NCBI GenBank assembly: GCA_963981525.1
Contig: CAXCDZ010000003.1
Coordinates: 1-33,542 of the forward strand
Length of the DNA: 33,542 nucleotides
Reading direction: 5' to 3'
DNA from: an uncultured bacterium
GTDB lineage: Bacteria; Patescibacteriota; Microgenomatia; UBA1400; UBA12108
Shown here in pieces: positions 29,789-31,102 of this stretch. Position 1 is the first letter of the stretch, and every line of letters starts with the position of its first letter. Both the position numbers and the translations under genes were made by a program. A model generated the notes under the pieces. It made no database searches. It was not told the origin of the DNA and saw only the letters and a program-made list of their open reading frames with translations.

Positions 29789-30970
29789 TTATTCTCCGCC
29801 CTTAGACACGTTTTCGTTGCAATTTGGACATTTACATTTTGTAGTTGGCGACTCAAATGATTTGTTGCAATTTCCACATTTTAATTTAAATGTTTTTTTA
29901 TCTTGACTCATTACCCTATCTGCTCGCATATCTAAATGATTTCCTTTTTGATCAAAACTCAACACTGAACTTCCATTCCCATGTCCTCCCCACATCGCTC
30001 TGTACATATCCATCTGCTGTAATTCCTCTTGTCGTATTATCCATTTCTCTATTTCATGCCCGCTAATCCCTTCCATTCCCATAATCCAACTCAACTCATG
30101 TGTTAATTCATTCTCATTAGCTATTTGTAAATATATTAATCCATTTTGATAAATTTCTTTTTGATCTTTATCAACAAATTCGCCCATCAAGTCTTTAAGT
30201 AGCAAGTCTCTCACCATCTTGGAAAATTTATCCCAAAAAAATTCTCCTTTCTGATCCAAAAATTTACTTCTCAACTGCAATATTGCCTGATTCACAACTC
30301 TCCCATCAAATTGGTCAGGATTATCCAAATCAACCACTCTTCTTTCTATCTCATCCCATCCTGCAAAACCCAGCTCCCCCACCACACCATCCAACTTTCT
30401 TTTTTTCACTACTATTGGCGTCTCCAAAACAGATTTTTTATCCAAATTAACCGGTAATCCCACAGCTTGCAAATGCTCTTCTTCTTCAATCTCCGGAGTG
30501 TACAAAGAATATGCCAAGTATTTATCTCCTTCTCCTCGTACGATTACAAAAGTAGCCGACAGCGGCGGCTCATCGCCAAATCGATACTCTTCTCTTGGGG
30601 GACTCACTATCACTATCCCATCTCCAATTTCCAATTCGCTTGTCATCTGACTCGCCATCTTCCACACCACTAACTCTGACTCAAATCTTCTAACTAGCTG
30701 CTCATTTCCTCCATATGACTGTCTACTTGTTTCCAACATTTTCGAATATTTTGTCAATTTACCCTCATCAAGATAACAAAAATCACCACCCACAAAAACC
30801 ATTTCTCTTTTGGTTATTCCTCCGACCACCTCTCTTCTCTCATTCTCAACAATCTGAGCCAACACATTCAATTCAGTCACCAAAGATTCAATATGCACTA
30901 CATGCTCAGCATCACTACCTTCGCTCATCAACACCGACGCCGGAATCCTACTTAGTTCAATCCTCGCCAC
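29789..30970 (-). CDS. hypothetical protein with C-terminal Zn ribbon
   Basis: About 393 aa; C-terminal 'CGNC-x10-CPNC'-type cluster. GTG 30970 follows AAGGAG (30976-30981) by 5 nt; the ORF track starts at 30985. Confidence 0.8.
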   Translation of the reverse strand: MARIELSRIPASVLMSEGSDAEHVVHIESLVTELNVLAQIVENERREVVGGITKREMVFVGGDFCYLDEGKLTKYSKMLETSRQSYGGNEQLVRRFESELVVWKMASQMTSELEIGDGIVIVSPPREEYRFGDEPPLSATFVIVRGEGDKYLAYSLYTPEIEEEEHLQAVGLPVNLDKKSVLETPIVVKKRKLDGVVGELGFAGWDEIERRVVDLDNPDQFDGRVVNQAILQLRSKFLDQKGEFFWDKFSKMVRDLLLKDLMGEFVDKDQKEIYQNGLIYLQIANENELTHELSWIMGMEGISGHEIEKWIIRQEELQQMDMYRAMWGGHGNGSSVLSFDQKGNHLDMRADRVMSQDKKTFKLKCGNCNKSFESPTTKCKCPNCNENVSKGGE

Positions 30971-31014
30971 ATTCACTCCTTCCACCCCTAGCTCGGGGGC
31001 AATAGGTCAAGTCA

Positions 31015-31102
31015 ATGTGGTGAGTTCCCGGCTTGTCTCGCCATTAGGCGGGCTTTACGGTTGCGGCACAGCAGAGGATTCTCACCTCTTTCCTACCCAC
31101 AT
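31015..31102 (-). promoter_or_regulatory. cobalamin riboswitch (short, AdoCbl-variant/class II-like)
   Basis: Minus strand ATGTGG-GTAGGAAA-GAGG-TGAGAAT-CCTC-TGCTGTGCCGCAACCGTAA...AAGCCGGGAACTCA-CCACAT: closing stem, GGAA, T-loop hairpin, GCAACYGTAA and B12-box-like AAGCCGG. Confidence 0.82.

Follow-up and report, generated by a model that had tools for sequence, protein, structure and literature searches.

What does an ultra-small bacterium keep under the control of its only cobalamin (vitamin B12) riboswitch, when the gene behind that switch belongs to no known family? The question is raised by a 33,542-nucleotide (nt) stretch of DNA, hereafter the window, which covers positions 1 to 33,542 of contig CAXCDZ010000003.1 from an uncultured member of the Patescibacteriota (assembly GCA_963981525.1; 902,039 bases in 103 contigs, 97% complete, about 0.9 Mb). 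There, a leader resembling a cobalamin riboswitch precedes an uncharacterized gene that we call X, by which we mean the 393-amino-acid (aa) product of the open reading frame (ORF) at 29789-30970 on the minus strand. We favor the reading that the leader acts as an OFF switch at the level of translation and that X is a new accessory factor helping to supply adenosylcobalamin (AdoCbl) to the ribonucleotide reductase NrdJ, and we place the probability of this reading at roughly 0.55. The elements on which the argument turns are as follows.

30974 to 31120, minus strand: cobalamin (AdoCbl-class) riboswitch, made up of the aptamer and the P13 expression-platform hairpin (RF01482, RF00174 and covariation)

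30982 to 31002, minus strand: P13 hairpin, UUGCCCC-CGAGCUA-GGGGUGG, which coincides in the alignment with the 3' stem of RF01482 and whose loop is proposed to kiss L5

30976 to 30981, minus strand: Shine-Dalgarno sequence AAGGAG, 5 nt before the GTG (sequence; conserved in 24 leaders)

30970 to 30968, minus strand: GTG start codon of X (sequence)

29789 to 30970, minus strand: gene X, a 393-aa soluble protein of an uncharacterized family, with a predicted alpha/beta N-terminal domain, a helical domain, a Gly-rich loop with a His, and a C-terminal Cys cluster (translation, homologues and models)

A preliminary description of this stretch had proposed a cobalamin riboswitch upstream of GTG 30970, and the Rfam covariance models agree. 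RF01482 (AdoCbl) matched 30974-31120 on the minus strand over its full length (model positions 1-149) and scored 52.2 bits where gathering requires 50 (E = 5.6e-7 over the window, 1.2e-8 over 701 nt). RF00174 (Cobalamin) matched 31002-31116 on the same strand (model positions 1-189) with 36.8 bits against a gathering score of 31.5. Each model gives exactly one place in the whole assembly. The same description had the switch ending about 45 nt before the GTG, followed by a small separate hairpin, CCCC-GAGCTA-GGGG, just before the AAGGAG. The hairpin is indeed present, but it is not a separate element. It aligns to the 3' stem of RF01482, usually called P13, and it is therefore part of the switch. 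The switch as a whole thus reaches the ribosome-binding site, while its aptamer core stops 32 nt short of the GTG. The Shine-Dalgarno sequence lies at 30981-30976 as described and is conserved in related leaders, with a GTG start codon a few bases after it in all 24 genes.

The RF01482 match in the window exceeds its cut-off by only 2.2 bits, and related leaders often fall below gathering (6 of 12 matches at profile-found loci; 14 of 21 family genomes). Both points count against the identification. Because the margin is small, the stronger support for the switch is comparative. To the leader of the window we added those of two metagenome loci (L001 and L002), which a metagenome scan had yielded, and of 21 loci in genomes of its taxonomic family, 24 leaders in all; a scan of genome contigs gave no relatives. 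RNAalifold predicts 26 pairs in the consensus of these leaders, and double changes are seen in 19 of them. The named structure, including the proposed kissing and anti-Shine-Dalgarno pairs, can pair in 93.8% of alignment cells compared with 78.3% in shuffles, a value that none of 500 shuffles reached, and pairing drops to 39-52% of cells when the partners are slid. The covariation score was 0.483 compared with 0.187 in shuffles (0 of 500 reached the observed value). Compensatory changes are found in 8 of 8 pairs of the outer helix, 4 of 5 pairs of P4 and 6 of 7 pairs of P13, and the core helices are conserved together with the B12-box-like strand CUGUGCCGCAAC. The best model differs among relatives: those with a P6 extension, the window included, fit RF01482 or RF00174, and those without it fit RF01689.

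Two further contacts bear on how the switch might work. The contact between L5 (GCC) and L13 (GAGC) is possible in 98% of cells, with invariant complementary GC/GC in 23-24 of the 24 leaders. A CCUU-type anti-Shine-Dalgarno element 5' of P13 can pair with AAGG in 85% of cells, and both of its sides are near-invariant and show no covariation. Since the two pairings are invariant, covariation neither supports nor refutes either of them, which is a point against the mechanism proposed below. Taken together, the model matches and the compensatory changes establish the identity and structure of the riboswitch at the level of sequence, and the 147-nt leader is best read as a working kissing-loop riboswitch of the cobalamin (AdoCbl) class, and as the sole one in this genome. 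Its ligand is presumably a cobalamin.

By eye, most family loci carry a TAGGAT box (TAnnnT, -10-like) about 10 nt before the riboswitch (L001, L006, L007, L011, L013, L016, L018, L024, L026, L034 and L036). The counterpart in the window, found by a consensus scan, is TTGACG-17-TAAAGT at 31200-31172. The box 5' of the leader suggests that the switch has its own promoter.

Is X the gene that the switch controls? We examined 24 genomes of the taxonomic family and 401 sampled genomes of the class. In 21 of the 24 family genomes there is exactly one RF00174 match, and 7 of these are above gathering. A profile built from the near relatives of the window found X in 13 of the 23 other family genomes, and a cobalamin-clan match lies just upstream in 12 of these 13 loci. 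Nine riboswitch-bearing loci were missed by the profile; in all nine, a clearly related X-like ORF stands behind the switch. The preliminary description had suggested asking which gene follows the switch in relatives, and the answer is uniform: in every family case examined, the RF00174 match lies just 5' of an X-family ORF. The gene order in the family is M20 peptidase, a membrane-anchored four-Cys protein of about 190 aa, the switch, X, nrdR and nrdJ.

A broader profile found X-like genes in at least 24 of the 401 class genomes, spread over eight further families; the count is a lower bound because the earlier profile missed divergent members. We examined 17 class loci outside the family for a switch and for gene context, leaving out L061-L065, which are weak X-like matches. 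A cobalamin-clan match lies upstream of X on the same strand in 13 of the 17 loci, with 9 above gathering. Directly upstream of X, 10 loci encode a PduO-type adenosyltransferase (PF01923, E 1e-36 to 1e-60) and one encodes a CobA-type adenosyltransferase (PF02572). Just before PduO, 9 of the 17 loci carry the C-terminal TSCPD domain of ribonucleotide reductase, the 3' end of nrdJ. The switch stands before pduO-X in five loci (L044, L047, L051, L052 and L053) and between pduO and X in four (L046, L048, L049 and L054). These data indicate that the linkage of the switch to X, and of X to adenosyltransferase and nrdJ genes, is conserved. No argument for a role of X in AdoCbl supply is stronger than this one: two unrelated adenosyltransferase families stand beside X, and the class of switch is the same for both.

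The ~190-aa protein of the family loci (window 31175-31783, minus strand; L001:2276-2833; L002:2878-3435) has one N-terminal membrane helix and four invariant cysteines. Its gene is found just 5' of the riboswitch in every family locus, the place that PduO takes in other families. We considered whether it is a diverged PduO and rejected this, as it is a membrane-anchored four-Cys protein that matches no Pfam or NCBIfam family. Separately, distant X-like genes with a GCPGG loop and a C-terminal Cys cluster (in L041, genome G413, and in L059 and L056) adjoin type IV secretion pilin genes. These genes have no riboswitch, except for a weak one at L056.

Downstream of X, the following elements are found.

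29691 to 29748, minus strand: predicted terminator-like hairpin between X and nrdR, a 12-bp stem followed by a U-run (consensus scan; fold -29.9 kcal/mol, z -2.1)

29198 to 29650, minus strand: nrdR, which by our reading lies outside the control of the switch (Pfam Zn_ribbon_NrdR 1.7e-19, ATP-cone 2e-17)

20103 to 29201, minus strand: three ribonucleotide reductase large-subunit genes, read as class II (nrdJ), at 26127-29201, 23027-26062 and 20103-22433 (Pfam Ribonuc_red_lgC, 1e-121 to 5e-137)

18919 to 19449, minus strand: CobA/BtuR-type ATP:corrinoid adenosyltransferase (PF02572, 1.9e-46; one match in the genome)

Because X and nrdR lie on the same strand only 138 nt apart, the switch could act on nrdR-nrdJ by read-through, with X as a passenger gene. 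The preliminary description had raised, as an alternative, the idea that X was inserted between the switch and nrdR-nrdJ. Our data speak against both ideas. Between X and nrdR come the terminator-like hairpin with its U-run and, ahead of nrdR, a promoter-like site and a GAGGAG, all recognized by consensus only. The pairing of switch and X is kept in lineages in which nrdJ lies upstream of the switch and nrdR does not follow X. Moreover, repressing the sole reductase when its cofactor is plentiful would make no sense. We therefore consider it extremely improbable that X is a passenger.

Ultra-small genomes of the candidate phyla radiation (CPR)/Patescibacteria depend on B12-dependent ribonucleotide reductase for all of their DNA precursors. 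The source genome fits this picture: no NrdD or NrdB-type gene was found in it, and the three reductases of the window are the only ones found. Its sole adenosyltransferase found is CobA, about 10 kb downstream of X in the same gene string, and the genome has no PduO-type match. FecCD/BtuC, PF09819, DUF4430 and the PF02310 B12-binding domain were searched for in the genome and none was found. Every recognizable B12-related function of the genome thus lies in the window, and the only switch sits on X.

X could instead be a B12-starvation factor that appears only once NrdJ has stopped working, either a cobalamin-independent bypass for deoxynucleotide supply or a brake on growth or replication. 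Isozymes that do without B12, such as metE and nrdAB/nrdDG, are often repressed by cobalamin switches, and X adjoins nrdR-nrdJ. With no other reductase class in the genome, loss of B12 would be lethal without some response. However, in 11 of the 17 other-family loci X lies next to adenosyltransferase genes or shares their transcript, and in five it is under one switch with pduO; this arrangement fits cofactor supply better than bypass. X also resembles no family of nucleotide metabolism. On this evidence a starvation factor is quite unlikely.

Most likely, X acts in the supply of adenosylcobalamin to class II ribonucleotide reductase. X would work with the corrinoid adenosyltransferase as a helper that binds, processes or reduces corrinoids. 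It might bind the corrinoid, strip off its upper ligand, carry out the reduction of the cobalt, or pass the corrinoid on to the adenosyltransferase. The preliminary description had raised the possibility that X is an unrecognized cobamide-related factor or a partner of NrdJ, and this proposal has gained ground: the family has no known relatives, the switch is present in the 24 leaders and in 13 of 17 further loci, an adenosyltransferase is adjacent in 11 and the 3' end of nrdJ is nearby in 9.

What kind of protein is X? We infer each of its biochemical properties from sequence, beginning with two features of its C-terminal half.

29966 to 29992, minus strand: Gly-rich loop WGGHGNGSS, residues 327-335, including His330 (alignments)

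29819 to 29878, minus strand: C-terminal Cys cluster, C365-x2-C368...C379-x-C381-x2-C384, zinc-ribbon- or rubredoxin-like (sequence)

X matches no Pfam family (the best is PF23107, with 17.2 bits against a threshold of 30) and no NCBIfam family. Among 41 members of the X family, Pfam gave weak zinc-ribbon matches only, apart from a CN_hydrolase match in P0032. A sequence profile search of the Protein Data Bank (PDB) gave a best E of 0.36, and the best match in the ESM Atlas, 0.77, was under the level of a lead. A word-indexed search with X returned eight clusters: a single one shared 99% identity, and the other seven shared 43-46%. An exhaustive search returned seven representatives, one of which is an artefact: P0012, a repeat protein (3796 aa, 40 stretches) that matches one 29-residue stretch repeatedly, was rejected as a relative. 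Another 17 proteins, more remote and all unnamed, came from a profile search. A search for fused or longer forms of X gave none, which is weak evidence. P0032 (319 aa, on a 1.9-kb contig) combines a carbon-nitrogen hydrolase domain with the first half of an X-family protein; read-through or a cut gene call probably explains this record better than a true fusion does. No paper describing the family came up in those parts of the literature that a full-text search reaches. The family is best read as a fast-evolving, uncharacterized cytoplasmic one of ultra-small CPR/Patescibacteria-type bacteria, with X as its founding member in this lineage.

Conservation within the family is concentrated at a few positions. 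E33, R95 and S123 are invariant in the 41 members, and E99, P124, P185, G201, W310, G333 and three cysteines (C368, C381 and C384) are nearly so. A motif that follows a beta-strand reads SPPG, SDPG or SPxDP. The Gly-rich loop, which lies about 30-60 residues before the CxxC...CxxC cluster, reads WGGHGNGSS in the clade of the window and G(S)CG(G/S) elsewhere. A regular-expression tally of 67 members found a His in 15 of them and a Cys in 46, and failed on the other 6. By eye, the six that were missed carry G-C, as do L009 and L022, where the expression had struck the Zn cluster. With both approaches combined, the same loop position is His or Cys in all 67 members. Such an exchange at one position is expected of a metal or cobalt ligand, and the alignment suggests that the His or Cys of the loop is one. 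The HGNG...SVL of the loop is superficially like the PF02310 motif (DxHxxG...SxL...GG), but it lies outside any such domain. The C-terminal cluster of four to five cysteines could bind Zn or Fe; all of its matches to Pfam zinc ribbons are sub-threshold, the commonest being Zn_ribbon_8 in 5 of the 41 members.

Structure prediction had been proposed in the preliminary description as a route to the function of X, and it yielded little. An AlphaFold2 model of X built from 13 sequences had a predicted local distance difference test (pLDDT) score of 73.6, with the Gly-rich loop disordered and of low pLDDT; the N-terminal domain alone, from 26 sequences, reached 82.7. A predicted complex of a PduO trimer with X of L051 scored 0.00, which gives no verdict and is evidence neither way. 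Nearly all of the top fold matches of the N-terminal domain are PAS, LOV or GAF sensor domains. With a zinc-ribbon-like cluster at its C-terminus and a position directly upstream of nrdR in this lineage, X could be a regulator that senses a ligand and controls the expression of nrd or B12 genes, rather than an enzyme or chaperone; it would combine a PAS-like domain, a helical domain and a zinc ribbon. Against this, none of the fold matches rises above noise (Z 5.2 or lower, Foldseek E 0.025 or higher), Pfam detected no DNA-binding family in the 41 members, and adjacency to nrdR is confined to this taxonomic family, with other genes downstream in other lineages. We regard a regulatory role as very unlikely.

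A number of observations weigh against a role for X in AdoCbl supply. L050 has pduO-X with no detectable switch, and L059, L060 and L017 have no riboswitch match; at L045 there is no upstream sequence present. The G413 homologue (L041:5413-6678) lies among pilin genes of a type IV secretion system without a switch. PduO is present in 285 of the 401 class genomes, and with an enzyme so common co-occurrence alone is weak; what carries the argument is adjacency together with shared control. Gene neighbors within related genomes are non-independent observations. On the side of the protein, the PF02310 B12-binding domain gave no match in X or 40 relatives at E up to 1, and Foldseek gave nothing at E <= 0.001 for the whole model or for the N-terminal domain (best E 0.025). 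With VIA-align, residues 50-180 matched PAS, LOV or GAF domains at Z up to 5.2 with a root-mean-square deviation (rmsd) of 4.0 A over 90 residues, in a range common for unrelated folds; three chains had Z of at least 5 and none reached 8. Residues 223-327 matched cyclin-box-like bundles at Z up to 8.5, which is likewise in that range and is unspecific for helical parts.

In which direction does the switch act? The OFF sign is the likeliest, and we consider it probable. The architecture, with the aptamer, P13, an abutting Shine-Dalgarno sequence and a CCUU element, matches that of repressing kissing-loop switches, and to our knowledge the kissing-loop cobalamin switches of such architecture repress. 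The Shine-Dalgarno sequence abuts P13 directly, and when the aptamer is enforced it is predicted to be paired (P > 0.5) in 18 of the 24 leaders. In the OFF mechanism, the coenzyme-bound aptamer would dock the P13 hairpin through the L5-L13 contact. Docking would stabilize P13 together with a short basal pairing to the adjacent AAGGAG, and translation of X from GTG 30970 would thereby be repressed. X would end at its own terminator, and nrdR-nrdJ would be expressed separately.

The leader of the window itself could also be read with the opposite sign. In an ON-type switch, the 3' strand of P1 would block the Shine-Dalgarno sequence and start codon in the unliganded state, and the ligand would lock P1 and free the start. 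X (pduO-X in relatives) would then be made only with B12 and would still be a B12-handling factor. In the minimum free energy fold of the window, the P1 3' strand CCACAUU pairs with GAAUGUG, which includes the GTG, and CCU pairs with AGG, so that the Shine-Dalgarno sequence and the start are buried (30968-31020, minus strand). Shuffled sequences form a weaker helix than the real ones in the window (z -2.4, p 0.03), L007 and L008. The window is also an outlier in that the probability of the Shine-Dalgarno sequence being paired falls from 0.96 in the free leader to 0.15 once the aptamer is enforced, and its CCUU element is degenerate (ACUU...ACCU). By eye, the spacer and start resemble the P1 5' strand in about 8 of the 24 leaders, for example UUGAGAGUG. 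Salvage genes induced by B12 would also be sensible in an organism unable to make B12.

However, the pairing on which an ON switch would depend is not a family feature. The helix between the P1 3' strand and the start reaches p < 0.05 in only 3 of the 24 leaders, with a mean z of -0.26, and the energies of the alternative helix are equal for own pairs and cross pairs (-5.68 vs -5.53 kcal/mol). The Shine-Dalgarno sequence, as noted, remains paired in most leaders with the aptamer formed. In addition, the enforced-aptamer values for the window use a MAFFT column mapping that is apparently mis-registered at its P1, which makes the enforced-aptamer energies of the window unreliable. Together with the repressing precedent, these results make an ON switch on X unlikely, and the poorly conserved pairing also argues against the ON control of B12-dependent enzymes that the preliminary description had floated.

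A more specific picture of X can be drawn, which we offer as a tentative one, less likely than not. X may be a new corrinoid chaperone or processing enzyme with a PAS-like pocket, whose mobile Gly-rich loop ligates cobalt through His in this clade and Cys in others. Its Cys4-5 site might pass electrons, and the imported cobalamin would be prepared for either type of adenosyltransferase. X would be the counterpart of CblC/CblD or PduS in ultra-small bacteria without known genes for B12 transport or processing. A bolder variant has X switched ON with B12 in this lineage. The window member is a somewhat divergent representative, with His instead of Cys in the loop, CobA instead of PduO in the genome, and the P6-extended form of the switch.

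Other features of the window touch X less directly. The nrdJ genes at 26127-29201 and 23027-26062 contain inteins (LAGLIDADG_3 and Intein_splicing, with LAGLIDADG endonuclease domains). One of the three tandem reductase genes has an N-terminal ATP-cone, and all three end in a CxxC...CxxCxxC tail. Two nucleotide-pyrophosphatase genes are present on the minus strand, one MazG-like (22580-23005) between the second and third reductase genes and one Maf (19446-20093). A TraG/VirD4-like coupling ATPase is encoded at 16104-18431 (minus strand). Group I intron matches lie near tRNA genes at 6460-6673 (minus strand, 84.3 bits) and 4681-4887 (plus strand, 56.4 bits), and the window holds six tRNA matches.

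How does this locus compare with known systems? Kissing-loop cobalamin riboswitches (RF01482 AdoCbl, RF01689 AdoCbl-II and RF00174; clan CL00101) include the T. tengcongensis AdoCbl and env8 hydroxocobalamin (HyCbl) structures. The leader of X resembles them in its full-length model match, its conserved core helices and its 3' P13 hairpin abutting the ribosome site. It differs in that the Shine-Dalgarno sequence of the window lies just outside the covarying P13 and pairs only with the short CCUU-type element, and in that the P6 extension is present in some of its relatives and absent from others. The likeness of X to PAS, LOV and GAF domains consists of the strand-helix-strand order of residues ~50-160 and of the PAS-type chains that top the fold lists; no Pfam PAS match accompanies it, and the scores (Z 5.2, rmsd 4.0 A over 90 residues) are of a size common for unrelated folds.

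The neighborhood as a whole is closest to the salvage and adenosylation operons under B12 riboswitches (btuR/cobA, pduO and B12 transporters), in which a switch, an adenosyltransferase and a B12-dependent enzyme likewise stand together. Unlike in those operons, the regulated gene here is of no known family, and no known B12 transporter was found in the genome. Beyond the one adenosyltransferase, the source genome has no recognizable genes for B12 uptake or processing, and the X family, under the genome's only B12 switch and beside an adenosyltransferase in other lineages, is an obvious place for the missing step. Cobalt is coordinated by a protein side chain in CblC/CblD (Cys-Co), BtuM (Cys) and His-on B12-binding domains. 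X is unlike them in that Pfam, PDB-sequence and fold searches revealed no resemblance to any of them. It may nonetheless be like them in its conserved His or Cys in a flexible Gly-rich loop, in its co-regulation with or adjacency to an adenosyltransferase, and in its position upstream of a B12 enzyme. With the only B12 switch of the genome before it, and with relatives beside an adenosyltransferase and the B12-dependent reductase, X is a strong candidate for an undescribed step in B12 handling, and the His/Cys loop offers a direct and cheap handle on its function.

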